Assembly (NCBI GenBank): GCA_043228905.1
Contig: JBHGNT010000001.1
Location: 10,354,001-10,418,000, forward strand
Direction: 5' to 3'
Source of the DNA: Azolla caroliniana
Lineage: Eukaryota; Plantae; Polypodiophyta
Length of the DNA: 64,000 nucleotides
The notes under the pieces are model-generated. The model was not told the DNA's origin. It ran no database searches and saw nothing but the letters and a program-made list of their open reading frames with translations. This document shows positions 10,607 through 55,659 of this stretch, piece after piece; the first letter of the stretch is position 1; every line of letters begins with the position of its first letter. Made by a program: the position numbers and the translations under genes.

Positions 10607-11259
10607 TGTTGTGACGTTTCCATGCCACGATGAGAAAATAACCTCTACCAATTTATATGAGCTCATTCAAATCTTTGTAAAAGGTTATATAGAGTGTGAG
10701 GCCTCGATGAATAGGGGCGTGTGGGGGTTTAGGTGTTGTGAAGGATTTGTTTCACAATAGAAAAATAAACTAAAATATTGTATTGAATAACATTTGAGAA
10801 ACTTGAACCCTCAACCTCACATACCAAACACAAGGCACATACCATTAGGCTAGGTCATTTGTTCTTTTAAAGCTATATTTTAATGTTTGTACTTATGCCA
10901 GTTCATACATGAAAGCTCAAATGTGTGGGATGTCTATCATGCACCACATGTAATGCATGAATGCCATTTAATGGCGATCATGCATCACATGCATGTCTTG
11001 TACCCTCACATGCATCATATGCATGGGGGCACCTATTTAAAGAGGGAAAGGGAAAAGAGGGGGAACAGGAGATGAGGAATATTATTGTAATAGGAGGGAC
11101 AAGCTATATTATTGTACAAGAAATATTTTGTACTCATCTTCAGATATCAATACAAGTTATTTCCGTTTTTCCTCTTTCTTTGACAAGAAGCTTGGTGCTT
11201 ACTTCCTAGATTCACGATTTTCTTTTCGGTTGCTCTTGTACGCCAAGATCAACGCGACA
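10607..11259 (+). repeat. Element D 5' LTR
   Basis: TGTTGTG...CGCGACA; ATGCAT-rich tract; matches both halves of the 3' LTR. Confidence 0.92.
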
Positions 11260-11295: not shown

Positions 11296-13513
11296 ATGGA
11301 GAACCAACAAGAAGTTTCGGAGCCACGAATCAACCAAGAAGTCATTGTGGAGCCACAAATCAACGTGGTGCTTCAAATGATTGAAAGAATGATGCATAAC
11401 CAAGAACGTGCAACTGCTCTTCAACGAATCGATCATGCTATTGACAAGCTTGTAGAGAAAATAGGTCTCTTTGAAGGTAAAAATATAACTAAATTCTTAC
11501 AAGTATATGTTATTGACATGGGTAGTAAAGGATTAAATCAACTTGATGTTCAGATGAATTTTGTGAGCATGGTTGAACTCCCTTTGAGAAATAGAGTCTC
11601 TGAACTCACAAAAAGTTCTAATGATTGGGTTGCATTTGAGCAAGCTTGATTAAATGAATACATGCTTGGTGATACAATCCGAGCATCAAGGAGGAATGTC
11701 TTGGATTGGGTGGACAAAGAGGACAAGAAGATTTCGGTGATGGAGTTGTTGAAAGAGCTTGAAGCTCGTTATAATCAATTAACGACGACAGAAAGGACTC
11801 TTTTGGAAGAAGAAAGGTCATATTATTCTTGAAGGCATCAGAACGATCCTATCGAGAAAAATTAGTTGCCTTCCTTGAAGAGTGGACTACACCCATTGGA
11901 CTAGTGTCTGATTGGAATCGAGTACATGAAGCTTGCAACAGAATCAGCAAAAGAGCCCAATGGTGTGAGGATCTTTCGATTGCTAGAGGTATGAAAGATG
12001 AAGTGAAGACAACCATCAAGGAGGATACTGGGAGTCCGTCAACTATTTCCAAGGTACCCGAATTAGTGATGGACGATCTTATAAAAGGTATAAAAGATCT
12101 TTCATTACATGTTGCAAAGCTACCAGAAGAAAAATCCTCACAACCCCAAAAAGATTATGAAAGAAGATGCATATGGTGTGATAGTGTCGACCATTCAAGA
12201 GGAGGGTGTGATAACTATCAAGAAGCGATAGAAAGAGGGGTGATATCAAAGATGGTAAGATTCATTCTTCTGAAACTCGATTACCTCTCCAAACTAACTT
12301 TAGAAGAGGTGGTATGAGAAGGATAATTGAAGACATGGAAATAACTAAGACACAAGCTGTGTATCAACCAACAACTACAGTCATCCATGTTGGTGAAGGA
12401 GGATCTGAATTTGAATTTTGGAAGTGTATTTTGAAAGCTGCAAGAAAGGGTAAAATCAAGTTGTAAAAGTTGAAGTCTGGAGGTGATGCTGTCTGAAGCA
12501 AAATTGGTTGGGAAGACCCAGTGGATGGCCTCTTAGCTTTCACCAAGGTTGCAACAACCCAAGCCCATGAAGTGATCATGGAAGAGAAACGTAAATGGGC
12601 GGAAAATGAAGATAACAAGAAGAGGGACCTAAGAAGCGCTAACAAGAGGGAGACAGAAAGTCCAAAAATGGTAAGCCCTGACATTGAAAAAGGTAAGGAT
12701 AAGAAGAGTCTCTCGTTCAAATTATTATCTGATATTGAACCTTCAACTGATTTAAAAAAAGTATTAGAAGAAAGAATTTTAGATAGCAAAGTGGAACTTT
12801 CCTTGAGGGAACTTTTGGGCATAGCTAAAAAAGAATTTCATGATGCAATAATAGATGGAATTAAAAGAAAACGACAAAGTATTGAAGCCGTCGAAAACCC
12901 AAGAAGTGAAGTAAAGAAAGCAACGGTGGAAGTCCTCAAAGCTTGCTCTTCCATTGTTGGTACACAAGCTATTACGACAACAACTTTTGAAGAGAAGCTG
13001 AAAGAGCTAAAAAGCTACTATGCTAAGAAACATTGGGCAAGAGCAACAACTAAGACACCCGTGCAGATTGAAAACCTTGAAGATTCGGTCGTGGCCTTAA
13101 TTGACCACGGCTCAGGAATTAATCTAATTTCTTATGATGTTTATAGGAAAGGCGGATGGCCAATGGAAACGAATCATGGGTGGAGGGTAAAATTGGCTAA
13201 TTCAACGACCGAGCAACTTCATGGAGCTTGCCCAAACATCAAAGTCACCATTGGAGATGTGCCAATGGAGCAACATTTCTTTATCCAAAAGACCTCGTCA
13301 TACCTAGTGATTCTTGGTCAACCATATATCACATCTTCTAGGATGGAGACGAAGGTGCTTGAAGATGGCTTGACATATGCTAGAATTCGGAATACTGATG
13401 GTAAAAGGAGTGTTCAATTTCTTACTGTTAGGCAGTAGCATGATAGAAATAAAGAAGAATTACGAATTAACTCATGTGAGCATGATATGTCATCTTATGA
13501 GTTGGATTTTTAA
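11296..13513 (+). pseudogene. gag: Element D gag-protease
   Basis: ORFs 11296-11649, 11829-12317 (CIWCDSVDHSRGGC), 12521-13438 (ALIDHGS protease, ILG); frame ends at GAT TTT TAA 13505-13513. Confidence 0.88.
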
Positions 13514-16500
13514 ATAGGATCATTGATGGGTAGGGACACAATGGTCCCAAAGCTTTTCTTTCCTTGCAAAAATGTTTTCCAATTAATAAAACAATCAATA
13601 CTTTGTCTAATACAATGGATGGATTTACCTATTACTTTGGTGTGGAAAGTCATGCACAAAATAAAGGGAGCAGGAAGATGTTGGATGCATTGTGCACTTC
13701 AGGGATGATTGAAAGGGATGACATAATTTTTGGTATGTTTCTTGAATATTCAAATGTGGATACAATCAGAATATTAGAAAATTGCTTGAATGAGAAAGAA
13801 CGCGACAAGAGATTTGTTCATGTAAATTCTATTGATATGTACCTTCATATTGCTGAGTTTATTGAAAAAAATGGTTGTATAGCTAATAGTGAAATAGTTG
13901 GCAATAGCTATCATGAAATGGCTAAAAAAGCAAGTAAAAATAACTATGCAATAAAAGTTAACACTAAATATAAAACAATAGACAAAAAGGTCAAGCCCGT
14001 GCCATGCATCTACTTATGGATAGTACTGAAATGAAAAAGAATGTCGTGTTTGAGCCAACATTGCGGGATTTTAAGGATATTGGTCATAAGTTTACAAATG
14101 CTACTCTAGATCAACTAAAAATTGGTGAGAATGATTTTCTTTTGCCTGTTGAGATACAATGTTTTCGAAATATGATTGCTAGTCATGGGAAAGCATTTGC
14201 ATTTGAGCCGAGTGAAATTGGTTGTGTAGACCCAACAATTGTGGAACCAATGATTATATTTACAGTTCTGCATATTCCTTGGAATTTAAGGCCTATCCCT
14301 CTTCCTCGGGCCCAAATACCGCAAGTAATAGCTTTGCTTAAGGAAAAAATAGAATTGGGTATCTTGGAGCCATCAGATGCCCCCTACTCGAATAAGTGGT
14401 TTACTGTACCTAAAAAGAACGGTTCATTAAGGTTCATTCAGGATTTATAGCCTGTCAATAGAGTTACTATTTGAAACATCGGTGTTGAACCGATTGTAGA
14501 TGCCTTTGCAGAAGCTTTCGCAGGAAGAGCTATATATTCTATGTGTGATTTGTATTCAGGATATGATCAATTTCAGCTTGCTATTGATAGTTATGATATA
14601 ACTACTATAAGAACACCAATTGGATTGATGCGAATGTGTACATTGCCTCAAGGTGCTACAAATTTTGTAGCACATATGGTGAATGCTATGAATAAAATTT
14701 TAAGAGATTTTGTGCCAAAAATACCTATGCCTTTTCTAGATGATGTTCCAATTAAAGGATGCTCGATGAATAAGAAGGATGAAAAACTCATGCCGAACGG
14801 ATGTAGAAAGTTTGTTGTAGACCACATTGATGCTTGTGAAAGAATCGTTTCAAGGTTAGAAGAGGTTCATCTTACATTTTCAGGTTAAAAATCTATGTTT
14901 GGGGTTCTCGATGTTCTGATTGTAGGGCACATGTGTGGACCCTACGGAAGAGAGCCATCCCCAATTAAGGTAAATGCAATTCAAAATCTAAAGGATGATT
15001 GTAAATCTCTAATAGAAGTGCGTAGGTTTTTGGGTGCTTGTGTGTTTTACCGAATTTGGATTCCACATTTTGCACATGTGGCTGATCCGCTTTATGGGTT
15101 GCTTAAGAAGAATTCAAGTTTCCTTTGGACTAATGTACATACAAATGCAATTCACCAACTAAAGGAAATGTTGTTGAATGCCCCTGTTTTACGGAAGGCT
15201 AGGTACGATAGTGAACACCCCATCATTGTTACTGTGGATACAAATCCAATCGGGATCGGTTGGGCTGTTAGCCAAGAAGAGAAGGATGGGTTGAGATATG
15301 CAGTTCGATGTGGTGCAAAAATCTTAACAGAACACCAAAGAGCTTACCCACAGATTAAAAGAGAGTTATGGGGTATGTTAACAACTATTAAAACAAATCG
15401 TGAATACTTAATTGGTGCTGAAGTTGTGGTTGAAACAAATTGTCGTCCATTGCTAGGAATGATTTCAAGTTGTGAAACATTTGATATAGCTATGCTTAGA
15501 TGGATAGCTTACATAACATCACTATGTCTTGAAATCAAGCACATTGCAGGAACGGATAACCCAGTTGCCGATATGCTCTCAAGAGCGAGGTTTAAAGGTA
15601 AAAATACTATGGTAATGACTGATGAAGAAGATGAGAGTTTTGATTTCTTTTCCATAAATTGTAACTTGAAGGGGTCATGTGATTTGGGTGTTCATGTTAT
15701 TCTTCGTGAATCTGAGTATGAGGGGGAGATGTTACAAATTGGAAAATACTTGAGTATTCACGAGAAAGATGGAACATGGTCAAGGGAGCTATTTCATAAA
15801 ATAAGAAAGAAAGCTTATAAATTTTTTCTTCATGAGGGATATCTTTGGAGACATCCAAAAGTTGTGAAAGGGATCCCGCAAAGAGTGGTTTGAAGAAGGG
15901 AAGAGCAAAAAAAACTAATATTTGAATTTCATGATACTTTATGGGCAGGTCATCGTGGAGTTTGGGCCACCTACTCGAAATTAAAAGAGAAGTTTTGGTG
16001 GGCTAGAATGTACAATGATGTTGCAGATTATGTACAATCGTGTGAGAACTACCAAATGTATTCGAATATTTGGCATCATGATGGGTTGCAACCTACTTAT
16101 TCTTTATCTCTACATTATAAATGGGTTGTGGATATTGTAATGATGCTTGTGGGGGTTTGGCAAATGAGATATCTGTATTGGCAAGAGAAGATTTAACAAA
16201 TCAAGTGGAAGGCCGAGCCCTACGCCAAAAAACCACTTCAGTTGTTTGTAAGTTCCTTCTTGAAGATGTGATCTGTAGGTACGGGTGCGTTGGGAAGATT
16301 GTTGCAGACAGAGGAGAACTAGATTCTGACGAAGCTGAACAATTTTTTTCAAGAATGGGAATTCTACTGTCCTTAACTACGGCATATAATCCTGAAGCTA
16401 ATGGGAAGGTTGAGCGTGGACATAACCCTATAGTAAAAGCTTTGGTGAAAGCTTGTGATGGAAAGATAGCTAACTGGCCTCATCTGTTACCGTATGCACT

Positions 16501-17050
16501 ATGGGCTGACCACACTACTCACAGTTCCGTAACTGACTTTATGCCATCAGAATTGATACTTGGTCAAAAACCAATTATTCCAGTAGAGCAATCGGTATTT
16601 TCCTGGGTTGCCTTGCCATGGGTAGATGAAATAAGTCGAGAAGATTTGCTTGCTCTTAGAATAAGACAACTATAAAGAAGGGGTGAAGATGTTCAAATAG
16701 CTATGGAAAGGATGAAACAATGTCGACTATGGAACAAAGAAAGATTTGATAAAACCCATCACCTTCGACCAAGAAAGCTCCAAGAAGGTGATTGGGTCAT
16801 AGTTTATGATAGCAGCTTGGATAACCAACATAGTACTTCTTGCAAATTTGCCAAAAGATGGTTCGGGTCATATATCATTAGACAACTGAATAAAAATGCA
16901 ACGTATGTCCTAACTGAAATGGATGGAGTTGCTTAAAAGTTACCAATTGTAGGAAAGCAAATTAAGCTATTCAAGAGAAGGGAAGATCAAAGCACTAACT
17001 TCCTCAACGAAGATGACATCCATGAAGCTGAAGAAGGACACATTCGTTGG
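13504..17050 (+). pseudogene. pol: Element D RT, RNase H, integrase
   Basis: DLYSGYDQF, LPQGATN, PFLDDVPIKG, VTVDTNPIGIG, IVADRGE, YNPEANGKVER, KRWFGSY. Confidence 0.93.
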
Positions 17051-17869
17051 CGCATACCAGAGGATGCGTAGGTCTAGAGAGGGAGGATGTCTTGACGTTT
17101 CCATGCCACGATGAGAAAATAACCTCTACCAATTTATATGAGCTTATTCAAATCTTTGTAAAAGGTTATATAGAGTGTGAGGCCTCGATGAATAGGAGCG
17201 TGTGGGGGTTTATGTGTCGTGAAGGATTTGCTTCATGATAGAAAAATAAACTAAAATATTGTATTGAATAACATTTGAGAGACTTGAACCCACAACCTCA
17301 CATACCAAACACAAGACACATGGGTAAAAGCATGCGAGTGGAAACACTATTATAGCTAATTAGCTACTAAAATGGCCATAGCTAATTAGCTATTTGTTTA
17401 GCTAGTTTTTTTTGTGGGAAAATCAAATATTTGAAAAACTAATTTATGAAAAAACTCAAATATTTGAACTTCTGTTTCAGACGTAGTGGAACTTGGGGAA
17501 TAGCACCATCATCTAAGGTCGACTTCAATGTCATCAATTTCCTGTTTAGCCTAAGTCTGATTTTGAACGCAGATGGAGTACTCAGAGCACGAACGCAGAC
17601 GTAGCTCCCGCAACAGCAGAAAATCGACATTGCAGATTGAGAGCTACAACACAGAACCCGCTCGATCATCGTCCAGGTATGTTTCAGTTACAAAAACCCC
17701 AAACATTTGTTTTTTCTTTTTGACTACTGTCTAAACTTTGGTGCCGATTCATATTTCCCCAAAATCGAATAGGGCGAAGTCCTTGGAGTCCCATACAAGG
17801 ATGTCTCGCAAATAAGGGAGTAGCAACATGTGTGTTTATATTACTTTTTTTGTGTTTAATCTTGTCTTT

Positions 17870-18410
17870 AGTGATGATTGGGGTTTCTGATTGAATTTTC
17901 TGATTAGGGTTTTTGTTTATAAATTTCTGATTAGGGTTTGTGATTGAAATTTTTGATTGAAATTTTTTATTAGGGTTTTTGATTATAAATTTCTGATTAG
18001 AATTTCTGAATAGGGTTTCTGGTTACAAATTTTGATTACAGATTAGAATTTCTGAATAGGGTTTTTGTTTATAAATTTCTATTTAGGATTTCTGATTAGG
18101 GTTTGTGATTGAAATTTCTGATTAGGGTTTTTGATTGAAATTTCTGATTAGGGTTTTTGATTATAAATTTCTGATTAGAATTTTTGAATAAGGTTTCTGG
18201 TTACAAACTTCTGATTACAGATTTTGATTAGGGTTTCTGATTTCAAACTTCTGATTACAGATTTTGATTAGGGTTTCTGATTTCAAATTTCTGAATACAA
18301 ATTATGATTAGGGTTTCTGATTTGCTAAGTTAAAGATTTTGCACCATTTTTGTTGTTGTTGATTGGGGTTTCTGATTCTCACATATTCTGATTTTGCACT
18401 ATTTTTGATT
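17870..18410 (+). repeat. Degenerate array containing TTAGGGTTT (telo-box-like) in cargo intron 1
   Basis: Repeated (TTTCT)GATTAGGGTTT units. Confidence 0.8.
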
Positions 18411-19769
18411 TCTGAAATGATATTTCAGATGGCTCGTTCCTTCGTACACGAGAGTGCTAAACTTCGCAAAATTTTGCGAGACAAAGGAGGACTTCCACAA
18501 CACCTATGGTCTGTCACTCGAGGGTGTTGACCCTGCTGTCCTAAGTGATAAATTGATCAGTGATGTAGACTGGATGATAGTATATACGGTGCCTAGAGTC
18601 AAAGGCAAGGTCAAGCTGAAGCATGTACGAGCTGACTTGTACGATGACTGCATGAGACTGCACCAGAAAGTTCATTAGGAGATCCCAGTCAACAACGAGT
18701 TGTCAGTTTCATTTGCTAGAGCATTTGCATATGAGTACTGCAAAACAACGAAGGAATCTAGAGACCCTGAAATGTATAGGGTAGCTTGGGCAGTCTATGG
18801 TGAGGCATCGGTAAAAAGATGCCGAAAGATGGGGACCTTGGCACAAAAAATAGACAGATTTTGGAGCATGGCAGCTGTTGATGCAACTGCCGACTCCCAG
18901 CAAGACCAGGGGCATACACCACACCGACACCCAAGGAAAGCCAATGTCGATGATACAGGTGAGACATTGGTTAGCTATATGCAGAAAAATGTCCATGAAG
19001 CCTGTGAGACATTGGCATTTTTTAAGACTGATTTAGAGAAAGCCACAATGGCTTCTGCAATGGAGAGCAAAGTTACTTCCGCTGTTACAACGATTAGAAA
19101 TAAGATTCAGGTAACTATTGTTTTGTTGGTATGTGATTGTGTTATAAATAACTTTAAGGGTAAAATGTGCTAATCAAACATTATCTGGAATAGGTTGCGC
19201 AACAGGAGCTTGAATTAGAGGGGCCACTGGATCCCCAGCGTAAAATACAACTGCAAATAGAGATCCAGGTTCTTTCAATGAACCTGGACCTTCTAGGTGT
19301 AAATACTGTTGCAGATTACAATTTGGATAAGCTTCAAGTAAGTTAACGATTCCTGACCAAAGTTGGTGTATCTTTCAACAACAGGAATAATTAATCGGTA
19401 AATTTCTCTGTTGCGTTGAAGGAACAATACATTCATCAAGAACAGGTAGTTAGCTGCCTTAAGAAGCAACTACCTTTTGTGGAGGGAATGGTAAGGACCA
19501 GACAGGATTTGGACCTGAACATTCTTGCTCCCTTACCAAATGAAGTAGAACCAGAAAATGATTTATTGACAGTTCAAGCACGTTGCATCGCTTGCGGGTT
19601 AGGTGTGGAGGACAAAACTGCGTCTTTGTTGGTTCACTTACAACAATGCAACCACACATACCATCTACTTTGTTTTTTCAACATGCCCGTCGAATTGCTG
19701 CATTCTGTTTGGGAGATTGCAGTACAACTCTACCAAATGAGTGGAGAAAACTAACAGGTATACCATACT

Positions 19770-20997
19770 GTAGCTAATAAGCTTAGTCTTTTCTAATTAG
19801 ATATCCTACTAGCTAATTAGCTACTGGCAGCTAATGAGCTACTAGCTAATTAGCTATCCTAGTAACTAATTAGCTATGGTACTAGCTAATTAGCTAGTAC
19901 CATAGTTGTGTAAAAAAGCTAATTAGCTATCCTATTAGCTAATTAGCTACTGGCAACTAATTAGCTATCCTAGTAGCTAATTAGCTATCCTACTAGCTAA
20001 TTAGCTACTCCCATAGTTGTGTAAAGTAGCTAATAAGCTATCCTAGTAGCTATTTAGCTACTAGCAGCTAATTAGCTATCCTAGTAGCTAATTAGCTATG
20101 GTACTAGCTAATTAGCTAGTACAATAGTTGTGTAAAAAAGCTAATTAGCTATCCTACTAGCTAATTAGCTACTGGCAACTAATTATCTATCCTAGTAGCT
20201 AATTAGCTACTGGCAACTAATTAGCTATCCTACTAGCTAATAAGCTATGGTATTAGCTAATTAGCTAGTACAATAGTTGTGTAAAAAAGCTAATTATCTA
20301 TCCTACTAGCTAATTAGCTACTGGCAACTAATTATCTATCCTACTAGCTAATTAGCTATCCTAGTAGCTAATTAGCTATCCTAGTAGCTAATTAGCTATC
20401 CTAGTAGCTAATTAGCTACTGGCAACTAATTAGCTATCCTACTAGCTAATTAGCTATCATAGTAGCTAATTAGCTACTGCCATAGTTGTGTAAAGTAGCT
20501 AATAAGCTATCCTAGTAGCTAATTAGCTACTGACAGCTAATTAGCTATCCTAGTAGCTAATAAGCTATCCTAGCTACTACATAGTTGAGAAAGTAGCTAA
20601 TTAGCTATCCTAGCTACTACCATAGTTAGTAAAGTAGCTAATTAGCTATCCTAGCTACTACCATAGTTAGTAAAGTAGCTAATTAGCTATCCTAGCTACT
20701 ACCATAGTTGACTAAAGTAGCTAATTAGCTATCCTAGCTACTACCATAGTTGAGTAAAGTAGCTAATTAGCTATCCTAGCTACTACCATAGTTGAGTAAA
20801 GTAGCTAATTAGCTACCATAGTAGCTAATTAGCTATCCTAGCTACTACCATAGTTGAGTAAAGTAGCTAATTAGCTATCATACTAGATAATTAGCTATCG
20901 TACTAGCTAATTAGCTATCCTAATTAGCTATTGTACTAGCTAATTAGCTATCCTAGCTTCTATCATAGTTTAGTAAAGTAGCTAATTAGCTATCCTA
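19770..20997. repeat. Array of palindromic TAGCTAATTAGCTA units (18-20 bp period plus higher-order units) in cargo intron 4
   Basis: Directly visible; dozens of copies. Confidence 0.97.
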
Positions 20998-23129
20998 AAT
21001 AGTTGCCATGTTATTGTAGAATCTTGTGGATTAAGGACGACACATGATGTGTCTGGTGCTGATGACGCTGCAACAGATGAGGATACTGCTGCCAACGTGG
21101 CTGAAAGTAAGAGTCCTGCTATCACATCTCCTTCAGATAAGCTCCACCCTATTCTTTTGGAACAGTGTACTGAATTAGGCAACGATGTGAAATGCCATGA
21201 AATAGTGGAAACAACATGTAAAACTGAGGTTCACAACAACAGTGTTTATGAACACTTGATGCAACATTTCTTCGAATCTCAAGACCTTGATTCCACCCCA
21301 CCGAGCCCAACTACTGAAAATGTCCAAACAGATCCCTTTGTACTTGAAAAGCTAGTTCAAGAAACGGCTGATGTGCAATTAGCTACTGAGGCGATGGGAA
21401 GGTTGTCGGAGGAGGACACACTTGCGCATTGGGTGAAAGAAGCAAGGCTAAATGGGGAACCGACCAGAAAAAGGCTGAAGAAGGGGCCACGATCGGGAAC
21501 AAGACCAGTTACTCGGTCAAGGGGCCCAGACATAGTGGAGCGAAATACTGTTTAGTTGGATATGATTGTTAGCTTAGGGATTTTGCTAGGGTTTTATGAA
21601 GTTTTACTATCCTGTTGGACAAGTAAAACCTCAGATTGGTTGTTGCTTGATCCACATTATGTAATGGAACTCTATGATGTTTTTCCAAGATAATTTGAAG
21701 AGTGTTGTTCTATGACTGAAACTCTTTGATGTTCAGAATGTTGTTTTGTGAGACTGTTAGTTACTTTGTGAGTGTGAATATGTTGGTGTTTTCTGATGTT
21801 GCAGAGTCTAAAGGGTTTGATTCTATTGCTCGTAAGGCCAATGGCAATGTGGATACTGTTGATGTTGTGGCATGTTTAAAGGGCCCCATCTTGAAAGTAG
21901 ATGTAGCAACTGACACAAGTGATCTGGTCACACAAGTTGATCAAGCATGTTGCACGGATGACTTGGTGTTGTAGGTAGATGCAACATGTGATACCAGTGG
22001 ATTGATATCAAGCAGATCAGTAGCTACATGCACCGAGGTAATCCAAGGATTGATAACTAAGTCGACAAAACAAGAGCACCAGAATGTGAAGCCAGGCCCA
22101 ACACAGTCGACTAGGGGTTTGAAGAGGAAAAGGACGCCAGTTGTGTCGGCTGAACCTGAGCTGATTGAGATTGATCGTATCCTACTAGAAAATGGTGTAA
22201 TAGCGGCTCAGTTTCAGGAATGGAAACCTAAACCACTAGAAGTCGAAAGAAGAGCCTTGATCTTGGAGCTTGATAAAGTCTTGATGAGTGTGAGATATAT
22301 GCAGCCAAGGAGGGACGCGAATCAGTTTCTAGAGTGGGCTGTGCAATACTTTGATTTGTTTATTTGGAGTGAAAAACCAAAATCAGATGTGTGGAAGTGT
22401 TTGGCAAGATTCTTCCCAAAATGGCGAAGTCGTTTTAAAGGTCAATGGGCACGAGAAAATTGTGAGCAAATGGAACCTGCAAGATTCAAGAGACTTTCTG
22501 ATTTTTGGGCTACTTGGCCTGAATATAATGCCGACAATACATTGATTTTGGATACAGAACATTTCCGGCACTAGTTCAATATTCGGAGATGCTGTCTCAT
22601 TCTACCTGAGGAAATGCCTGAACAGTACCTGGTGCAAACAGTGAGCTGCCAACTAGGTGCATGGTTGTGGACTCCATACCGAGCTCGATATGCGGATAAT
22701 ATATGTAGACTCGTTCCACTGACTAGCAAGAGCTTAGATGTTTATAGGAGATTTGTAGACATTTCCAATGGTAATTTATAAATATGTAAAGAGATGACAT
22801 TATTCAATGAAGAATTTAATTACTTGTTCCCACTATACTTATCTACTGTGTAATTTGAGGAATATGTTGCAGATTGTTGATTTCATGCTATTGATGACTA
22901 TTTAACTATTGACAGCTAATTAGCTGCATTTGTACAACTAATTAGCTACTGATGACTATTTCGCTATAACTTATAACTTAAAACTTAACAAAAAAGACAT
23001 GATTTTATTGAGAAAGAAGCATAGAAAGCAGACTGTATACAAGAAATTGATTCTCAAACGAATTTATTTAACTGTTTTCGCGAAATACATGTTTGTTTTA
23101 CAAGAGAACATGGTAAGTGCTACTTGTAG

Positions 23130-26100
23130 CTACAAATTCCATGGCATACTATTGTAAATACATTCATACACATTAGCACCAACAGTGTATAAACCCGAGC
23201 AGCTATTGTATTCTGACATTGGGACGTTGATGCACTTGACCAAATGAGAGTACATGTACGCCGTTGGTTTGTCTTCTAACAGCCTGCACACATATTCGTA
23301 GTCATCTAGTTTTGCATAAAAAATGCCTTCGATGTAGAATGTCCCGGCAGATACAAAATTTCCCCATGCATCTACAATATTCTTCCTTGCACACTGTTTA
23401 CTAACTGTGCACTTTAATATATAGAAATCAGCACCCTCTGAATTGCCTTCTTCAACATTTACAGCGAAGTTATCCCCAACGTTCAGGACATCACTCAAAG
23501 TATCTCCAAGTCCCTCATATGTGAAGTCAGCATTCTGCCCAGTTTCTCCATCAACTGCTTCCTTATCATTCAGAGTGTGATACTCCCAATTCTGAATGTA
23601 TGCTTTGTTTAGACAATATCTCCAATTTCCCTGCACACAATGGAAGCAAAAACAAGTCAATTCTCTAACCGCAATACAATGACCATCCAACCTGGAATAA
23701 CCGCGAACAACATGCAGAGATCGCAATTCGGGAATTCCTTGGCACTCCCAGGTCTTCTCCCTATTTACTTCATCTATCTTCACTTCCCAAAATTCACGTT
23801 TGATATCTCGAACTTGCGAGGAATAAACACCTGTGGCACTCGTTGACATATTTGTTCTTAAAAATTCAACTACATGTGATGCACAATTCATGTGCACACC
23901 ATCTGTCTTTAGTTGTTCATGGGTAAGTGCCCGCTTTATAATAGCCCCTGCACCATCATGTTCACCTTTACCGTGGCCAAACCCAAAAAAATTCCATCTC
24001 ATCTCCAAACCTGTTATGGCAGGATACCTCCCCACAAAATAAAATGGACGTCAAGCCTTGAATTGTGACGTAGCTCCGTCAGACCAGACCCAATGTTGAG
24101 TAAGCTCCAAACGTTGAGCTAATAACCACTGCCAATGTAACTTAAAACAGTGTTGGATGAACAAGGTATCATGCTTCTTATCATCGGAAATAAAGAAATG
24201 AATTACTTTTTTAACATCACCTGAAACTCGAAAATATGTTATGTGCACAAAAATGGTTACCTGAACTGAACACCAATGCATAGATTGAATTTCATTCTGC
24301 TGCTTGAAAGTATAATTCTCTGCGAAATCTACTACTGAGACTACTACATCATTTGGGAAATCAGATATGCAAGTCTTAAACTGATGGGCTTGCCATGAAT
24401 AAATGAAGTTGTGTTTAATGAACTTTCCTAGATATACTACAAACAGAGACACCAAATCCCTTGGTTTAAGCATCTTCCGAACTAGATCCTTTCTTTTACA
24501 CACCTTTCCTTCGAAATTGGTGTTCACTGACTCAAAGAACTTCACAGAGATCAATATTTCACTACTCAATTCATTTGGACACCACCTAAATCTAGTAGGG
24601 CCACAATCTTGACATAAACCCATGACACATTTATGAATATGGAAGATAGCGTCAATTTCTCTCGGATACAATATTGAATCTAATAAATAACTCATGGAAG
24701 AGATAACGTGCTCAGATGATTTACACTCCTCTTGCGGGCTTGATCGACAGATTGGGCACCCACATGTGCAAACTGTATTAGTTAGGGATGCGCTATGGTG
24801 ACGTAGTAGATTAACAGAGTCCTTCAGAAAACCCATCTGGTAAATGCAACAACATGTGTATCGATCCTTTAAGCGTCTCACAAAGTGTGGCTTAAGAGAC
24901 TCGAATGTTCGTAGTTGAACTTTGATAGTTGGATGCATTCGTTTGAACCTAATAAATAAATCGACCTGCGTAATAAAGGGGAATTAGTTATTCTCGTAAC
25001 TAGCTAACTATCCTAGTAGCTAATTAGCTATTCTAGTAGCTAATTAGTTATTCTAGTAGCTTATTAGCTATCCTAGTAGCTAATTAGTTGTTCTAGTAGC
25101 TAATTAGCTATCATGGTAGCTAATTAGCTATTCTAGTAGCTAATTAGCTATCATGGTAGCTAATTAGCTGGTCTAGTAGCTAATTAGCTTTCCTAGTAAC
25201 TAATTAGCTATCATGGTAGCTAATTAGCTGGTCTAGTAGCTAATTAGCTATCATGGTAGCTAATTAGCTATAATGGTGGCTAATTAGCTGTCCTAACTAA
25301 TTAGCTATCATGGTAGCAAATTACTTGGTCTAGTAGCTAATTAGCTATCACGGTGGCTAATTAGCTATCCTAGTAAGCTAATTACCTGTCATGGTAGCTA
25401 ATTAGCTTTCCTAGTAGCTAATTAGCTGGTAATAACGAAATAGCTAACTAGCTACCAGTACAACTAATTATCTGGTAGTACCTAAATTAGCTATTGAGAA
25501 TAACTAATTAGCTATCATGGTAGTAGCTATTGAGAGTAGCCAGTTACCTATGTAGTAGCTATCCTAGTAGCTAATTAGCTATCATGGTAGCTAATTAGCT
25601 TTCCTAGTAGCTAATTAGTTGGTAATAACGAAATAGCTAACTAGCTACCAGTACAGCTAATTATCTAGTAGTACCTAAATTAGCTATTGAGAATAGCTAA
25701 TTAGCTATCATGGTAGTAGCTATTGAGAGTAGCTAGTTACCTATGTAGTAGCTATCCTAGTAGCTAACTGAGGTAAATGTAACTGATAAGCTAATTAGCT
25801 TTTCTGCTAACTGAGCTAATTAACTTTCCGTGTAGAGTCAAAACAAATGTTGAGATAAATGTAAATACCTGAGGTACATCAAGAAGATGAATGGGATGCT
25901 CCTCGTATTGATTTCTTCCAACACGTTTCCTGCATAAATCCTTTTTATTGGGTGAAGCCCTACTCTCATTAGTCCAAAACATTGTGATTACATCCTTGAT
26001 TTCAAATGTTATGGGTGTCATTGGCTTACATCTTGTAGTTAGCTTTAGTAGACTAGTTCCTTCATTCGAGGAAATTATACGGTTCATTGTATTGTACACT

Positions 26101-26570
26101 GTTTTTCTACTAACACCAATTACCTTAGATAGCTCACTGATGTTTATATCGTCAACATCACTATTAAGTAACATCATTAGACTAGACCTTTTTAAGACAA
26201 GATCATCTTCTGACCTGCTCATGGATACAAAACTATTACGAAGATTATTTACTAAAATAGATGATATGTTTGCATTAAGACCATCACAATCAACTAAGTC
26301 CTTTATCGATGGATAATTACATATTCCATAAAGTACTACCTTCTTTTCTTCATTGTTGATGTGCTTGGTTTGAACATTGAAATAGTCTACAACCTTTCTC
26401 TCTATGATGGTAGTTGCATTACTTACATTCTCAACTAAACTATCCTTAACTTTATTGAGTGTGGCTTTCGTATCTTTCAACAATTGACGATGTTTCCTTT
26501 TTTTTTTCTGCCCAATAGTTTCGTATGGCTTGTTGTGTCCTGATAGCATCATCCCTATCCTTATGATCAT
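23130..26570 (-). pseudogene. Sola-like DDD transposase, two exons, one in-frame stop
   Basis: Exon 1 to 25869 (..LLDVPQ) splices in frame to 24965 (VDLFIRFKRMHP..FESLKP); VVDFAENY, EIQSMHW, WSDGATSQFK, FFGFGHGKGEHDGAG, C-terminal CFCFHC; TGA at 24051-24053. Superfamily call from recalled motifs. Confidence 0.8.
24985..25825. repeat. TAGCTAATTAGCTA array in the transposase intron
   Basis: 20-bp units TAGTAGCTAATTAGCTATTC/ATCA, plus a larger duplication. Confidence 0.96.
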
Positions 26571-26949
26571 TGAGGGGTAATTCTAAACACCCTTCTTCCC
26601 CTTCCATTTGGCTGGACATGTTAAAACCCTAAATTTCCAGAAAAAAAAACAAGTATTTAAGATGGCTATGGGCAACAACAATACACAAAAATATTCCACA
26701 ATACACAAGATTAGACACAACAATACACAAAATAATCAATAGACAGAAAAGTTATTGCAATCCAAGACCGAACAGTAGAGGAGTTCACTCTGTTGGATCG
26801 AATAGTTGAGGAGGCGATCCAAGACCGACGACCATGGCGACAACTGAGTGTAGAATGTTGCCGTTGGATGAGTGAACTCCGTCAAATCGAAATGTGGAAG
26901 CAATCCGGGATTGGACAATAGCGGCAATTGAGTATAGAATGATGGCAAT

Positions 26950-27610
26950 GGAGGAGAGAACCCCGTCAGATTGAACAGTTACCGATGATGCTTGGAATGC
27001 ACATAGAAGGCACCTGAGAGTACTGTGGCACAGAGAAGAGAACCTCGTCAGATTGAACAGTTACCAATGATGCTTGGAATGCACAATAGCGGCCCCTGAG
27101 TATAGAGTGGCACAAAGAAGAGAACCCCGTCAGATTGAACAGCTCTTTGATGATGCTTGGAACGCACAGTAGCGGCCCCTGAGTGTAGAGTGGCACAGAG
27201 AAGAGAACCCCGTCAGATTGAACAACTCTTTGATGATGCTTGGAACGCACGGTAGCGGCCCCTGAGTGTAGAGTGGCACAGAGAAGAGAACCCCGTCAGA
27301 TTGAACAGCTCTTTGATGATGCTTGGAACGCACAGTAGCGGCCCTTGAGTGTAGAGTGGCACAGAGAAGAGAACCCTGTCAGATTGAACAGCTCTTTGAT
27401 GATGCTTGGAACGCACAGTAACAGCCCCTGAGTGTAGAGTGGCACAGAGAAGAGAACCCCGTCAGATTGAACAACTCTTTGATGATGCTTGGAATGCACA
27501 GTAGTGGCCCCCTGAGTGTAGAGTGGCACAGAGAAGAGAGCCCCGTCAGATTGAGCAACTCTTTGATGATGCTTGGAATGCACAATAGCGGCCCCTCAGT
27601 GTAGAGTGGC
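26950..27610. repeat. 83-bp tandem repeat (about 8 copies) upstream of the transposase
   Basis: Unit GTCAGATTGAACAGCTCTTTGATGATGCTTGGAACGCAC...AGAACCCC; degenerates leftwards. Confidence 0.95.
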
Positions 27611-28307
27611 GGCAGGTGGACTCGATAGGGTTTAGCAACAGTGGTAGCAACTAACCCACAGTACTCAACTAGAGATGGCCTACGTGATGTGGCAAAGGAT
27701 CATGCATAATGGAGCTAGGAATTCGATATATAATTTATGGTACACATTTATGGTGCACACATCAATTTATGTTGCACATTTATGGCACTCATTTACATAT
27801 GTAATTAAAACACTCTAGTATTTTCAATGGTAGTTTTTTGCATACTTAATTTATTAATGATGGCTTTTTACTTAAATGACTATTTATCAATGGTAGCTTT
27901 TTGCATAGCTAATTAGCTATGTCAAGGACATAGCTAATTGTTTCACTTCTCAAATGCGTGGGATGTCTATCATGCATCACATGTAATGCATGAATGCCAA
28001 ATGGCGATCATGCATCACATGCATTTCATCCACTACATGCATGTCTTGTACCCTCACATGCATCATATGCATGGGGGCACCTATTTAAAGAGGGAAAGGG
28101 AAAAGAGGGGGAACAGGAGACGAGGAATATTATTGTAATAGGAGGGACAAGCTATATTATTGTACAAGAAATATTTTGTACTCATCTTCAAATATCAATA
28201 CAAGTTATTTCCGTTTCTCCTCTTTCTTTGACAAGAAGCCTAGTGCTTACTTCCCGGATTCACGATTTTCTTTTTGTTTGCTCTCGTACGCCGAGATCAA
28301 CGCGATA

Positions 28308-31300
28308 ACGGTAGGCTACATCCCAAAACTCCAAGCAAAGACGAACTTCTGCGAGCATTGTCGATATGGGAAACAAACCTGAAGTCTGCACACTCTCCAC
28401 TACGAGACAGTACGAGACAGTCCCTAGAGCTCGTGCACATAAATATATGTGGGCCCATGCCAGAGCGATCACTAGGAGGCTCATGGTACTTCATCACCTT
28501 TGTAGATGACTGTACACGGAAGGTCTAGCCCTACTCGATCAGGTCCAAAGACGAAGCACTCGAGGTCTTCACTTGGTGGACATCCGAAGTGGAAAACTGG
28601 TCAGGACATAGAGTGAAGACACTCAGATCTGACAATGGAGATGAGTACACCTCCAGAGCCTTCAAATAGTACCTATCTAACAAAGGGATCCGACATCAAA
28701 AGACCGTTCCCTACCCACCCATGCAAAATGGAGTGGCAAAACGGATCAACAGAACGATCCAGGAGAGGGTGACGGAAATGCTCCAGCAAGCTGGACTGAA
28801 ACTAGAATTTTGGGCAGAAGCTTTGCAGACGGTAGTATACCTGATAAATTTGGCGCCGTCAAGAGAAATCGGGCTTGAAGTGCCACAAACACTATGGTCA
28901 GGCAAACAACCGACCTACGATAGGCTCCATACATTTGGATGTGAAGCCTACACGTTCATCCCCAGGGATAAAAGGACAAAATTGGCACCCCATGCAACGA
29001 AATGCATATTTCTCGGCTATGGAACCGATGGGGAATTTGGCTATAGGATATAGGACCCTGATAACCGGAAATTGATCCGGAGAAACGTAATCTTCAATGA
29101 AAACTCTATCTTCTCTCAGCAAAACCAACAGAGAACAGTTGGTAAGAAGGTATCCTTTGAACATGATAGAGTTGTCATAGAAGAACCGACCCACCAAGAC
29201 AAATAAAAGATTCGACAAACAATCGAACTCGAACAAGCCAACAATATACGTGTTGACTCCGAATCGGCAACAAGCCCAATTGTTGCACTCAAAGACAAAG
29301 TCATCAAAGACACAGCTGAATCAACAAGAGTCGAAAAAGGCATAGTCAATAAGATGCAAGTCCAAGATAGAACCGAGTCGACAAAGCTCACAAGGGAAAA
29401 CGGTACGACACCGTTGACGTCCCAACATGGGGGTGGGTCATCTAACAAGACTCTTGACACAAGTGGTTCAACAAATACTAATCGCCCAACCGAGTTGATC
29501 GAAGAATCCGAACCACTTATCTCAACACCCAGGAGATTTGGACGAGCTCGAAAGCCAACAGAGTTTTTCCAATTGGGCCTTGACTACGTCAACTACACCA
29601 ATGCAGGTGAACCAAACACTTATGAAGAATCTATAGGTGCAACAGACACCGACACATGGCTACAAGCCATGAAATCTGAAATGGACTCGATTCACAAGAA
29701 TCAGACATGGGAGGTAGTTGAACTACCAGCTAGAAGGAAGCCGCTACCCTGCAAATGGGTTTTTCGATATGTACAAATATGTATCTGACTCAGAAAAACC
29801 CAAGTACAAAGCTCGACTCGTTGCGAAGGGATTCAAACAAGAATACAGGGTTGACTACGACGAGATATTCTCACCAGTAGTGAAGATGACCACCCTCCGA
29901 CTCCAACTAGGCGGTGTAGGGACAAAATATTTGGAGCTCGAGCAGATGGACATAAAGATGGAAACAAGCGCCGAGGATGTGGTACTAGAAGTTTGACTCC
30001 TACATCAGGCAGCTTGGATACCGCTGATCTGACTCAGACCCATGTATGTACACTTGGCAACTAGCTGACGATTCTAGGATTTATCTGATCCTATACGTCG
30101 ACGACATGTTGATTGCAGGAAGCAATCAAGCAGAGATCGAAAAGCTGAAGCGGAGCCTTCACGACAAGTTCACGATGAAGGAACTCGAACAAGCTTGTCA
30201 CATACTGGGCATGAGGATCGATTGAAATCGGACGACCAAGACTGTTCTCCAACTCTCCTAGTCCGACTATATTCGGAAGGTGTTGAAGCGCTTCAATATG
30301 GAGAATGTGAAGCCAACACCAACACCGCTTCCGACGTCGATCGGACTATCGGACAAAGACTCTCCTGCAACGGACAAGGAGAGAGAGCTTAATGGAAAGA
30401 TGCCCTACGCATCGACCGTAGGAAGTACCATGTACGCAATGGTGGCGACCCGACCCAACCTAGCCCATGCTGTAGGGGTGGTCAGCCGGTACATGTCAAA
30501 CCCAGGGCGGAAGCATTGGGAGGTTGTCAAGCACATCCTTAGGTTTTTGAAAGGAACCATGTGTTATCCGTATAGGTGTACGGGATGGATAAGGTGTAAT
30601 GTGTATGCTGTGTAAAGTCTAAGGTATGTAATATGTAATATCTATATGAGTGTGTGAGCACATGCACAATTATGTGCATGTGACAAGAATGTAATGGTAG
30701 TCTTATTTATAACGGTCATGTAACCATTACATTGGATGTATTATATAAACCCCTTATGGGCATGTAATGAATATGCATTTTTCCTCTCTCACATTTGTGT
30801 CATTTTCTATTTGTCTTTCTGTCTAGCTCTCTCTCTAACTTAACCCCCCCTTGGGAGGGGGGTGAAGCCATTCTAGGCTTCACCCCCCACCCCAACAACA
30901 CCATGGATGCACAACTGACTTTCGGACTGACAACCACAACCAAAGTCGAAGGCTACACCGATTCCGACTATGCCTAGAACATGGACAATCAAGAATCGAC
31001 ATCAAGTTACATCTTCACCTATGGTGGCGGTGCGATATCATGGAGGTCGAAACTTCAAGAGGGCACGACTCTGTCGATAACAGAAGCCAAGTACATAGCA
31101 TCATCGGAGGTAGTGAAGGAAGTGATCTCGTTGCATCGACTGTCTGCCAATTTCTCAACTATAAGCCAAATCGACCGACCTACGCCAACCATCTATTGCG
31201 ACTCACAGAGTGCAATACACCTCATCAATAATCTTGTCTATCACACAAAGACAAAGCACATTGAGGTGCGGTATCATCACATTCGGGAGCTCACAATTGA

Positions 31301-48722: not shown

Positions 48723-50716
48723 CCGGATTCAAGGACTTGATGTACGCTATCCACCTGAGCATTGCTAGGTCCGGCGTTGCGCATTTGGAAACTATACCGA
48801 GAATCGGCAGGTAGTCCGTCTCAATTATCACCTCCGTCCCGATCAGCTAGTCTTTGTCGGCCTTGACCGTCGAAACAATACCCCAGAGTTTGCGTTTAAC
48901 CTGGGCGTACCCTCGTTGTCGTTCACTGAGGACTTTCGCGCCGAACCGGATGGGGAACCTCGTGCCATTCTCATCCTCCTAGTTGATCACCCATTCGATT
49001 CTGGTCGGACTCATGTCTACGGTCACGTAAATCGGAATGTCTTTACCGTAGACCGCTTTCCGGAGTGCCAACGCCGCAGCAAGTGCTTCTTTCATTGTTC
49101 GGACCGACTCCGTATGCTCCTCTCTCCACTCGAATCTACGCCCTTTCTTCAACAATCCATAGAGCGGCTCCGCGACGTGGGCGTAATGCGAGATCCAGAT
49201 ATGGTAGAACGCGCATGCTCTCAAGAATCTCCGGACTTCCATGACCAAATTGCAGTCGCGCTTCATCGCAGAGATGGGCTCTACCTTGGCCGGCGACGAT
49301 TTCCGACCGAATGGCCCACATAGGTGTCCAACGACCATGATCTCTGATTGCCTGAAGGCCAATTTCTCTCCGGAGAAGGTGAGCCTCGCGCACTCTAGTC
49401 TTTGCAGCACCTTCTCGCAATCATTAACGTGGTCCGCCACAAATTTCCGGCATCCGTTCAGTCCGATTGTCTCGTCCTTATCCTCCATCGGGCATCCTTT
49501 GATCGGGATGTCATCTAAGAGTGGCATGGTGATGTCCGGGATACAATCCCTTAGCGCTTTGTTCATTGTGTTCACCATATGGGCTACCGAGTTCGTCCCT
49601 CCTTGCGGAAGGGTACACATCCGTACTAGGCCGAGAGAGGTCCGCATCGTTGTAATGTCCCTGCTCTCCACGGCTAGCTAGAACTGATCGTATCCCGAGT
49701 ACAGATCACCGACCGAGTAAATTGACCTTCCGACGAAGGCCTCTACAAACTCGTCTATGGTCAGTCTAATTCCTGCGTTTTGAATAATTGTCACCTTGTT
49801 GACCAGTTGCAGGTCCTGAATGAAGCACAACATGTCGTTCTTCTTGGGCACGGTAAACCACCGATTAGAATACGGGGCACTCGACGGTTCGAGGATGCCC
49901 ATATCCACCTTCTGTTTCAGCAGCTCTATCAACTTCGGGATGTGAGCTCTGGCTACTGGGAATCGGTTTGAGATTCCACGGTACATGCGGTACCGTGAAG
50001 ATCATCATTGGCACCCGATCTCCTCCGGCGAGAATGCGAAGGCCTTTCCATGCCTCCCAAGCATTCTCTGAAACCAGTCCTCCTCCGCCGGCAGTAGAAA
50101 GCCACCCCCACCGACCTTGAGCTCTCGTAGCGTTATGTCGATGAATCGGTGTCCTATGCCAGCCGGATCTCGTAAACTTGGGTCTGACGCGACCCCCTTC
50201 ATCCGTAACTTGTTGCCCTCCGACAAGGGTGTTATGACTAGCCTCACCTTCCGGTCCACAGTCTTGTACTTCGTATCCACTCGGGCCGTCCGATCCAACA
50301 TAAGTCCTCTACCGAAGTCGGCGATGACTTCGTACATCTTTTCCAAACATACCGGAATCGTCCGGTCTTCACTAAGGCCCTCTCCGAACATCTTCCGTAA
50401 CTTCCCCAAGGTGTCGTCAAGAGAGACCGCGTCCACGGCTCCGTTGATTTCCTCTTCGGGGGCAAGGACTCCACATGCCCCGAGTCACTCTTCTGCCCGC
50501 TTCTTCTCCCGGCCAACGACGTCGGCTATTGTACAACCTCCGCTGCCGGAGAACCAAAACTTCCTACCTACATTACAGGTTCTTCTGCCTACTGTACATG
50601 TGTGGGGTTTTTCCGGAGTGTCTAGTGTTGAGGAGCAAGCTCAACATGGTATGCGATGCTTATTGGGAAATAAGCTATAGTAGTTATTTAGCTACTTGTG
50701 AACATAAAGGAGAAAC

Positions 50717-50874
50717 AGCTAATTAGCTACTGACAGCTAATTAGCTACTGACAGCTAATTAGCTACTGACAGCTATTTAGCGACTGACAGCTATTTAGCG
50801 ACTGACAGCTAATTAGCTACTGACAGCTATTTAGTGACTGACAGCTAATTAGCTACAGGCAGCTAATTAGCTGC
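50717..50874. repeat. 18-bp tandem array AGCTAATTAGCTACTGAC in J 5' LTR (about 9 units; about 7 units at 55769-55890)
   Basis: Counted directly in both LTRs. Confidence 0.95.
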
Positions 50875-51312
50875 ATACGTAAGTAACTTATTACTTAGGT
50901 AGAAAGTAAGAGAGTAAGAATATAGATGAAGATATACAGGAAGTAGAACTCTAAGAGAGAGATAGTGAGCATAGAGAGTGAGAGCAAGAGAGAGAAACAA
51001 AAAAGAGAGCAAGTAGAGCTCCGCGTATAATGAAATAGAAGAAGTTTTGGCTGCTACAGAGGTAAGTCTCCTTCCCCCTTCCCTTCTGTGTTTGAGCACT
51101 AAACGATCTAGCACACCACGATCCGCCGCGCACATAAGAAGAGCTCGAGTGCCTTCTTCACGTTTTATTAACATGGTATCAGAGCAGAGTTGCTCATAAA
51201 GAAGATTACAAAAGTGCATAGATCTGAGAAAGGTATTTCTCTGTTTGTTGATCTGAATCAGAAAGTTACTTGTTGAAGTAATTGTAACAGAAAACCTAGT
51301 TTGGAAGAGATA

Positions 51313-54300: not shown

Positions 54301-55659
54301 AAGGAATTGATTATGATGAGACATTTGCACCGGTTGCAAAGATGGCAACATTGAGGACATTACTGGCTGTAGGTGCAGCCAGAAGATGGTTTCTTCATCA
54401 TATGGATGTAAAAAATGCCTTTTTACATGGTAACTTGGAAGAAGAAGTGTATATGTGTCAACCACCAGGTTTTGAAGATAGGAAGCATCCAGATTATGTA
54501 TGTAAGCTGAAAAAGGCTCTCTATGGACTGAAACAGGCACCAAGAACATGGCACAGGGAACTTTCAGATTATCTGAAAAAACTTGACTTCAAAATGTCAA
54601 AGGCTGATTCATCATTGTATGTTAAAAGGAAAGATGATTGTATGGTTGTGATTCTGATTTATGTTGATGATCTCATCATTGGAGGTGATTTCATGGATGA
54701 GATAAGTAAGCTGAAAAGAAATTTGGAAATGAATTCATATGAAAGATTTGGGAGATCTGAGATATTTTTTGGGTATTGAAATCATCAGATCTGAAAGTGG
54801 TATATGTGTGTTGCAAAGACAATATGCAACAACTATGTTGAAAAAGTATGGTATGCTTGGATGCAAACCTATTGGAGTACCACTAGATAAAAACTGCAAA
54901 TTGAGGGCTGATTTGGGAGCCAAAATAGAAGATGTAAACATGTACAGGTCTATGGTGGGCAGCCTTATTTATTTGACCATAACAAGACCTGATTTGAGTT
55001 ATGCAGTTGGATTAGTCAGCCAATTTATGCAACAACCAACAAAGCCGCATTTGGACTGCATTAGAAGAATTCTGAGGTATGTAAAAGCTACTCAGAACTA
55101 TGGATTGTTTTACAGGGCTGATTTGGACATAAATCTGGAAGGATATACAGATGCTGATTGGGCTGGAAGCCAAACAGATAGAAGATCCACAAGTGGATAT
55201 ATCTTTACATTGGGAAGTGCAGGTATTTCATGGAGTAGCAAGAAACAGGCTACTGTTGCATTGTCTAGTACTGAAGCTGAGTACAGAGGAGCTGCCATAG
55301 CCACTTGTGAAGAGGTATGGATCAGAAGATTGCTTGCTGATTTGGGAGAGTATATAGACGGTACTGTCACAATCTGGTGTGACAACATGAGCAGCATTCA
55401 ACTTGCAAAGAACCCTGTGTTCCATGCAAGAACAAAGCATATTGAAGTGCATTATCACTTTGTTAGAGAAAAAGTGATTGAAGGAGAAGTTGATCTGGTG
55501 TATGTGAATACAAATCAGCAGGTTGCTGATATTCTCACAAAGGGATTGAGTGTGGAAAAGCATACACAGTTTCAGAACATGATGGGAGTTGTAGACATTG
55601 ATATGATGGCTGAAAAGCATCATGAAAAAGGAGTTGTAGATAACCCCAAGAAAGGATAA
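51313..55659 (+). pseudogene. pol: Element J gag-pol polyprotein with two frameshifts (near 51580 and 54735)
   Basis: ORFs 51301-51618, 51585-54779, 54739-55659: CWYCGKPGHTQAEC, WYVDSGAS, QQNGVAER, YVDDL, YTDADWAG, KHIEVHYH. Confidence 0.95.

Follow-up and report, generated by a model that had tools for sequence, protein, structure and literature searches.

We analysed a 64,000-nucleotide (nt) stretch of DNA from Azolla caroliniana (assembly GCA_043228905.1, contig JBHGNT010000001.1, positions 10,354,001 to 10,418,000 of the forward strand), referred to here as the window. One long terminal repeat (LTR) in the window is split by a 10.6-kb Sola2-type DNA transposon (17322..27951, no strand assigned) that holds two genes: a transposase gene on the minus strand and, converging on it, a multi-exon accessory gene on the plus strand. 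The accessory gene is predicted to encode an unnamed helical N-terminal domain (hereafter N-domain), which a preliminary description of this locus had overlooked, a RING-H2-like finger and a terminal domain with the NIF/FCP1 fold. Correcting that description, we find both genes pseudogenised by stops and frameshifts in the window copy.

The boundaries of the insert bear out the earlier view that it interrupts a single LTR. The 5' half of the host LTR (17093..17321, plus strand) is 95.6% identical to positions 10612-10840 of an unsplit partner LTR, and the 3' half (27949..28305, plus strand) is 90.6% identical to partner positions 10916-11257. The left end is fixed at 17322: sequencing depth rises here, and the matches of contigs from four out of four DNA runs begin on or beside this position, with unlike flanks. 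The right end is uncertain between 27948 and 27951, since a CTC triplet can be assigned to the element or to the LTR. Because about 75 nt of the LTR are gone at this junction, a small deletion likely took the extreme right terminus and the second copy of the target-site duplication (TSD). Sola2 elements make an AT-rich TSD of 4 bp. The left flank reads ACAT; with the LTR sequence lost on the right, no duplicate of it is readable, and no TSD was seen at the insert. As for terminal inverted repeats (TIRs), which in Sola2 are short and often imperfect, the left end of the window copy matches its right end only loosely, and 31 longer related loci yielded no convincing TIR/TSD pair. The window has a single copy of the terminal motif, and searches of the 80 related loci, of viral contigs and of prokaryote genomes gave no match to it. 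Two of two DNA runs covered the insert in all 30 bins, and 20 of 22 listed runs contained part of it; this wide coverage, together with the protein clusters of homologues described below, indicates that the Sola2-like element is a multi-copy family. The left terminal region (17322..17411, plus strand) begins with GGG and contains subterminal copies of the palindrome discussed below. Many contigs match these first 90 nt alone, at 80-93% identity, which suggests that related families or non-autonomous derivatives share this end. The surroundings are nested (9395-29788): the split LTR belongs to a Gypsy-type element (11775-16675; DUF4100, RNase H, integrase), and this Gypsy in turn seemingly interrupts a Copia element with gag at 9395 and integrase/reverse transcriptase pieces at 28670-29788.

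The minus-strand gene had been described as a spliced Sola-like DDD transposase, and we agree: it has two exons (26619-25869 and 24965-23130; 862 codons) with motifs that are specifically Sola2-like. Exon 1 (25869..26619) encodes a helix-turn-helix (HTH; HTH_11, E 1.5e-4, below cut-off) and is 92% identical to the related locus L001. Exon 2 (23130..24965) encodes a Cys-rich region, a Sola2-type DDD core and a C-terminal domain. By eye, the motifs DFAENY, Q-EIQS-HW, ISDD-HD, SDGAASQFK and HGKG-DG-G agree with the Sola2 alignment in the available part of PMC3627910 (S10). The window transposase matched no transposase domain in Pfam, and Sola transposases have been reported without such a match (PMC5751038). 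A protein search returned 82 homologues, led by the cluster P0002 (94% identical, 34 members); those named are from Calypogeia, Adiantum, Taxus, Cryptomeria, Klebsormidium and rotifers, and Sola elements have been reported from moss and Azolla (excerpts of PMC10741241 and PMC6786969). The window gene is frameshifted by a single additional base within a T run near 26500 and has one stop at 24051-24053; L001, a 95% relative, gives an open model of 863 codons with the DDD/Sola2 motifs at codons 464, 547 and 583. Because the ratio of non-synonymous to synonymous change (dN/dS) between the window and L001 is 0.26 over exon 2, we conclude that the transposase lineage was under purifying selection. 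Over 24965-23133, the two copies also show 25 C-to-T/G-to-A differences (14 CHG, 7 CHH and 4 CG), a context pattern consistent with decay of methylated DNA.

The accessory gene begins with an exon (17439..17676, donor score 11.0) that is likely 5' untranslated region, its true start being uncertain. A spliced contig of a related organism (X18 record 9), from a run taken to be RNA, joins 17439-17674 to 18426-19108. Between these lies a 57-nt micro-exon (17773..17829), bounded by AG and GT, whose length fits the unplaced part of the same contig and which holds a predicted start codon (ATG, 17801) followed by a stop (17813). The N-domain (~18520-18837) is encoded by the exon at 18429..19110, with a stop at 18676; a frameshift near 18510 was excluded, since this exon begins in phase 2. 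There follow a phase 0-0 exon (19194..19337), likely a coiled coil to judge from its sequence, the RING-H2-like exon (19422..19757, finger at 19584-19720) with a frameshift in a T run near 19676, an acidic/basic exon that ends in a stop (21020..21555), and the terminal NIF exon (21805..22781, domain at ~22230-22700) with stops at 21972 and 22572; all are on the plus strand. The claim that the first four splice junctions preserve frame stands for three: from ATG 17801 the frame is kept through to 19757 across junctions 17829/18429, 19110/19194 and 19337/19422, but the fourth junction (19757/21020) is in frame only if the frameshift near 19676 is crossed. A contig of the family spans that region with two gaps.

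We infer two isoforms from the layout of the last exons. In both the window and the related locus L004, the penultimate exon is stop-terminated and its top-scoring donor is internal and in phase 1 (21107 in the window, score 7.8), and the NIF acceptor is in phase 1 in the window, L004 and L007, that is, in three of three elements checked. This shared donor, the exon-ending stop and the matching acceptors argue for alternative splicing between a short isoform, with N-domain, coil, RING and an acidic/basic tail, and a long NIF isoform. With the frameshift crossed, the short form ends at 21555 and has 574 codons and two premature stops; the long form, which joins 21106 to 21805, runs to 22781 with 750 codons and four premature stops. 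That RING and NIF would lie on a single polypeptide is suggested by these conserved splice phases and by predicted gene models. The stops and frameshifts in both genes rule out an intact autonomous copy. The window copy is thus unable to make either accessory isoform or the transposase, and would be passive.

From 19584, the RING exon reads C-x2-C..C-x-H-x2-H-x2-C, with a last cysteine pair of C-x3-C. The first six ligands of a RING-H2 finger are present in the window, in Adiantum, in L018 and in the L055 group, with a final pair of C-x3-C or C-x4-C rather than C-x2-C. The preliminary description had called this a RING-H2 pattern, and our results support a RING-H2-like domain; Pfam RING matches are below cut-off. 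For the N-domain, a Foldseek search with its predicted model gave nothing at E 0.001 or better, and a word-indexed search with the N-terminal exon gave no longer homologue. The sole match of its profile among PDB sequences, a designed protein (E 0.0012), was rejected as chance. An N-domain profile built only from related loci reached the Adiantum proteins at E ~1e-5 and the window at only E 0.29, so that the link between loci and window is a transitive one.

The terminal domain matches NIF (PF03031) at E 1.2e-7 and 32 bits, above the cut-off of 21.8. A search with the NIF exon found 73 representatives, led by P0157, an open relative at 93% identity whose predicted model is confident over the domain. 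Compared with known structures, this model matched SCP2 and SCP1 at Z 18 (SCP2: Z 18.1, root-mean-square deviation (rmsd) 2.6, 147 residues aligned), Tim50 at 17.3 and UBLCP1 at 17.1, and Foldseek gave a like result; a PDB sequence search with P0170 found nothing. Profile search and structure prediction thus agree with the FCP1-like fold proposed earlier. Motif I in the window reads ELDKV (22266-22280), as had been reported, and not the canonical DxDx(T/V). Catalysis by HAD enzymes requires both aspartates. Among the 22 readable of 29 element-type rows, motif I is DLN, NLN, DLQ, DLE, ELD, EVE and similar, so that D, E or N occupies the nucleophile site and N, D, Q or E the +2 site. Because motif I is non-canonical, catalysis has probably been lost, in line with the earlier suggestion of a dead enzyme, and the domain is likely an inactive binding module; on the same ground we rejected a canonical carboxy-terminal domain (CTD) phosphatase. 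Binding of phospho-CTD-like substrates, also suggested earlier, is unsupported, because motif I is non-canonical and the nearest cellular relatives, including a Sphagnum host gene, already read DxN and are not CTD phosphatases; Tim50, UBLCP1 and CTDNEP1 match the domain about as well as SCP. In a quick tree (63 domain rows past a length filter from 78 sequences, groups labelled by eye), the 29 element-type NIF domains fall on one side of a branch with SH-aLRT support of 99, and the relatives in this clade that bear names come from Ceratopteris and Adiantum, which by themselves would make a fern the likely host.

The accessory gene belongs to the element as a conserved, multi-copy component. 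We grouped 80 related loci into 53 groups. A convergent N-domain follows the transposase in 8 of the 20 groups with at least 4 kb of downstream sequence (two of the eight being seeds picked by eye), and all 13 matches lie on the opposite strand. L018 and the L055 group show the RING-H2-like pattern on that strand as well. L004 and L007, with transposases at 45-49% identity to that of the window family, each have a convergent NIF exon beyond the transposase; in a tree of fetched homologues only, with no Repbase Sola1/2/3 references among its rows, all three NIF-bearing transposases fall within one nine-row clade with support of 100, which also includes L002. In Adiantum nelumboides, the NIF representative P0181 led to 77 dispersed gene models, 34 of which match N-domain, coil, RING and NIF profiles in the same order. 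Profiles built from the Adiantum models find the window in that order too (N-domain E 5.4e-9, RING 1.6e-6, NIF 1e-12); the coil profile had no match in the window. The cargo is therefore present in other copies, and its multi-copy state and conserved orientation rule out a host gene caught by chance. Since the N-domain and RING both occur without NIF in other families, they likely form the older core, and NIF would be a later, sometimes lost, addition. Two relatives illustrate the range of layouts. L002 (6469-8892, minus strand), with a 60% identical transposase, has a convergent gene of repeated short exons with an acidic/basic last exon and no NIF exon. L014 (7029-8732, minus strand) has an open accessory frame of 568 codons that encodes the N-domain, an acidic stretch and probably a coiled coil; this frame showed no RING pattern and no NIF match.

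Each gene has one intron filled with copies of the palindrome AGCTAATTAGCT, at 19793..20997 in the accessory gene and 24982..25805 in the transposase gene, as repeat and motif counts reveal; a few further copies lie near both ends of the element and between the genes. Fifteen sequences were examined for clustered 10-mers. Distinct top 10-mers mark window/L001, L002, L004/L005, L006/L008, L007 and L051, and no clustered motif was found in three of the 15 (L003, L011 and L016). Outside the element, the window contains 11 exact AGCTAATTAGCT palindromes, all in the two LTRs of one Copia, compared with none in 100 simulations. This Copia (50624-56201) has a pol frame of 1076 codons and 18-bp tandem repeats with AGCTAATTAGCT in both LTRs, and it is possible that it hitch-hikes on the Sola2 accessory protein. 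The second intron of the accessory gene holds another array (17884-18322) of 13/40-bp units rich in ATTAGGGTTT, which we take to resemble the plant telo-box. Eight 83-bp tandem repeats, 92% alike, lie upstream of the transposase start (26951..27610).

The reading that we favour, at a little under an even chance, is that the accessory protein is a sequence-specific anti-silencing adaptor to which NIF is added by alternative splicing. The N-domain would read the arrays of its own element, in the way that VANC recognises those of VANDAL. The RING finger would recruit the ubiquitination machinery and tag a histone or silencing factor bound in the vicinity, and the NIF domain of the long isoform would serve as an inactive module docking a (phospho)protein partner, not necessarily the Pol II CTD. 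The protein would thereby counter the silencing of copies of its own family. In favour of this reading count the domain order and convergent layout shared with relatives, the grouping of the NIF-bearing transposases and of the element NIF domains in the two trees, the conserved splice phases, the spliced contig over the first exons, and, as parallels to VANC targets, the differing arrays of the families and the palindromes in the Copia LTRs. A counter-silencing or host-modulating role had already been proposed; the family-specific arrays strengthen that hypothesis, apart from its phospho-CTD part.

Several observations weigh against this reading. The N-domain has no Pfam or Atlas match, and its predicted model is middling (mean predicted local distance difference test score, pLDDT, 61). 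Against 48,161 chains, VANC21 tied first with this model, at noise level (Z 3.3, rmsd 5.8, 126 of 139 residues aligned), and the likeness finds no support in sequence. The transposase HTH is an equally possible reader of the arrays. For the RING finger, the best Pfam E value is 0.026, below cut-off, and for NIF the canonical motif I does occur in 1 of the 29 rows (DLDKV in P0203, a fragment of 48 amino acids). A convergent NIF exon is rare, found in 2 of the 34 locus groups with at least 1 kb downstream, and L002, nearer the window than L004, has none within 2424 nt. The full domain order is missing from the remainder of the 77 Adiantum models; those that have it are gene predictions, some seemingly including intron sequence. 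None of the 77 has a transposase domain or could be placed beside a transposase. No contig links RING to NIF across 21020-21805 in two runs taken to be RNA, whose small shares make this no evidence either way, and no RNA run was listed for the NIF/transposase stretch.

A broader version of the anti-silencing reading is possible though on the whole unlikely. Land-plant Sola2 elements would have an anti-silencing system of their own, independent of or older than VANDAL/VANC, in which a DNA-reading domain co-evolves with intronic arrays and has a ubiquitin ligase attached. In ferns the domain would also be coupled, by alternative splicing, to a pseudo-phosphatase that captures a phosphorylated regulator of the host. 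Copia LTRs with copies of the motif would hitch-hike on the system.

We regard it as rather unlikely that the accessory protein is instead a transposition cofactor that leaves silencing unaffected. Here the accessory protein or the transposase HTH would bind the motifs so as to assemble the transpososome or direct it to its target, and RING and NIF would serve turnover or chromatin docking. CACTA TnpA and the Harbinger Myb-like protein are parallels. Motif copies just inside both ends of the element, and a gene orientation that is constant across deep transposase lineages, would suit such a cofactor, and a TnpA-TnpD complex has been modelled (excerpt of PMC13547354). However, the majority of the motif copies are intronic and kilobases from the ends, and a cut-and-paste cofactor does not explain the motif in the LTRs of an unrelated Copia.

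It is doubtful that only the core gene (N-domain, coil and RING) is functional and that the NIF exon was captured from the host and is rarely or never spliced on, or is transcribed apart. The stop that ends the preceding exon in the window and L004, the lack of NIF in L002, the highly variable motif I and the lack of a RING-NIF junction in the two runs noted above would all be expected of such a passenger. Yet NIF frames are open, and the fold retained, in diverged families at 25-40% identity, the element NIF domains share a single branch whose internal lengths are long, and the acceptor phase is kept in all three elements checked; moreover, the window NIF exon has no in-frame Met ahead of motif I. 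Improbable, too, is a self-limiting regulator whose RING would degrade its own transposase, or a still-active atypical phosphatase using non-canonical hydrolysis, for which the invariant motif III Lys (K251) and nearly invariant motif IV Asp (D272) of alignment A2, the conserved cellular DxN subfamily and DLDKV in P0203 speak, but against which the variability of the nucleophile and +2 sites suggests no catalytic constraint.

Plant transposon anti-silencing proteins are known mainly from VANDAL elements, which are described as dicot-specific (excerpt of PMC13547354). If the anti-silencing reading is true, the Sola2 clade of spore-bearing plants would add a second system open to testing, one that has close relatives in Ceratopteris, a model fern. 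The accessory protein would be a transposon-borne ubiquitin-ligase/pseudo-phosphatase adaptor, which we did not meet in the literature searched. Of practical use, many fern genes annotated 'FCP1 homology domain' or hypothetical (77 Adiantum and 4 Ceratopteris models) are likely transposon cargo rather than host phosphatases. The preliminary description knew of no such cargo in this superfamily, and we likewise found no published description of the N-domain/RING/NIF gene or its clade, in a search that covered few subscription papers or Repbase entries, so that an earlier description is possible.

Accessory genes as such are not new to Sola elements, as the available parts of two reports show: Fanzor is carried in Sola2 (PMC3627910) and a ParB-methyltransferase gene in Sola1 (PMC12477816). 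Sola2 elements, including Sola2-Fanzor1 chimeras (excerpts of PMC3627910 and PMC10741241), share with the window element the transposase motifs, the carriage of a second gene and a size within the reported range. The window element differs in belonging to a land-plant clade, in carrying a spliced, convergent N-domain/RING/NIF gene rather than Fanzor, and in offering no verifiable TSD or TIR in the window copy. Sola1-1_Ec32 of Ectocarpus (excerpt of PMC12477816) likewise carries, on its opposite strand, an accessory gene for which a role at the element's own DNA has been proposed, but it is a Sola1 element with ParB/methyltransferase, domains unrelated to those of the window Sola2 element.

Other comparisons lie outside the superfamily. 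The FCP1/SCP family (NIF PF03031: SCP1-3, CTDNEP1, UBLCP1, Tim50 and the plant DxN subfamily, with the P0223 cluster and Sphagnum) shares the HAD/SCP fold (Z 15-18, rmsd 2.5-3.9); the element domains have ELDKV or DLNG in place of DxDx(T/V), are 15-19% identical to solved members, and are mobile and multi-copy. In PMD-PP7 fusions (MAIL3) and the MAIN/MAIL1-PP7L complex (excerpt of PMC7156037), transposon-related and phosphatase-fold domains likewise meet in chromatin regulation. This is an analogy only: those are host genes with a PPP rather than a HAD fold, and only analogy ties the N-domain to PMD. A parallel in design is VANDAL MuDR/VANC (excerpts of PMC5735166 and PMC13547354). The family-specific arrays that VANC proteins bind lie in introns, between genes and in terminal regions, and AT9TSD1, an unrelated element, shares VANC6 motifs (PMC5735166, same excerpt); an accessory gene, family-specific arrays of short motifs at such sites and an unrelated element sharing the motif recur in the window. 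The Azolla element differs from VANDAL in having a transposase of another superfamily, an added RING and NIF, a palindromic motif, and an N-domain whose match to VANC (Z 3.3) is at noise level.

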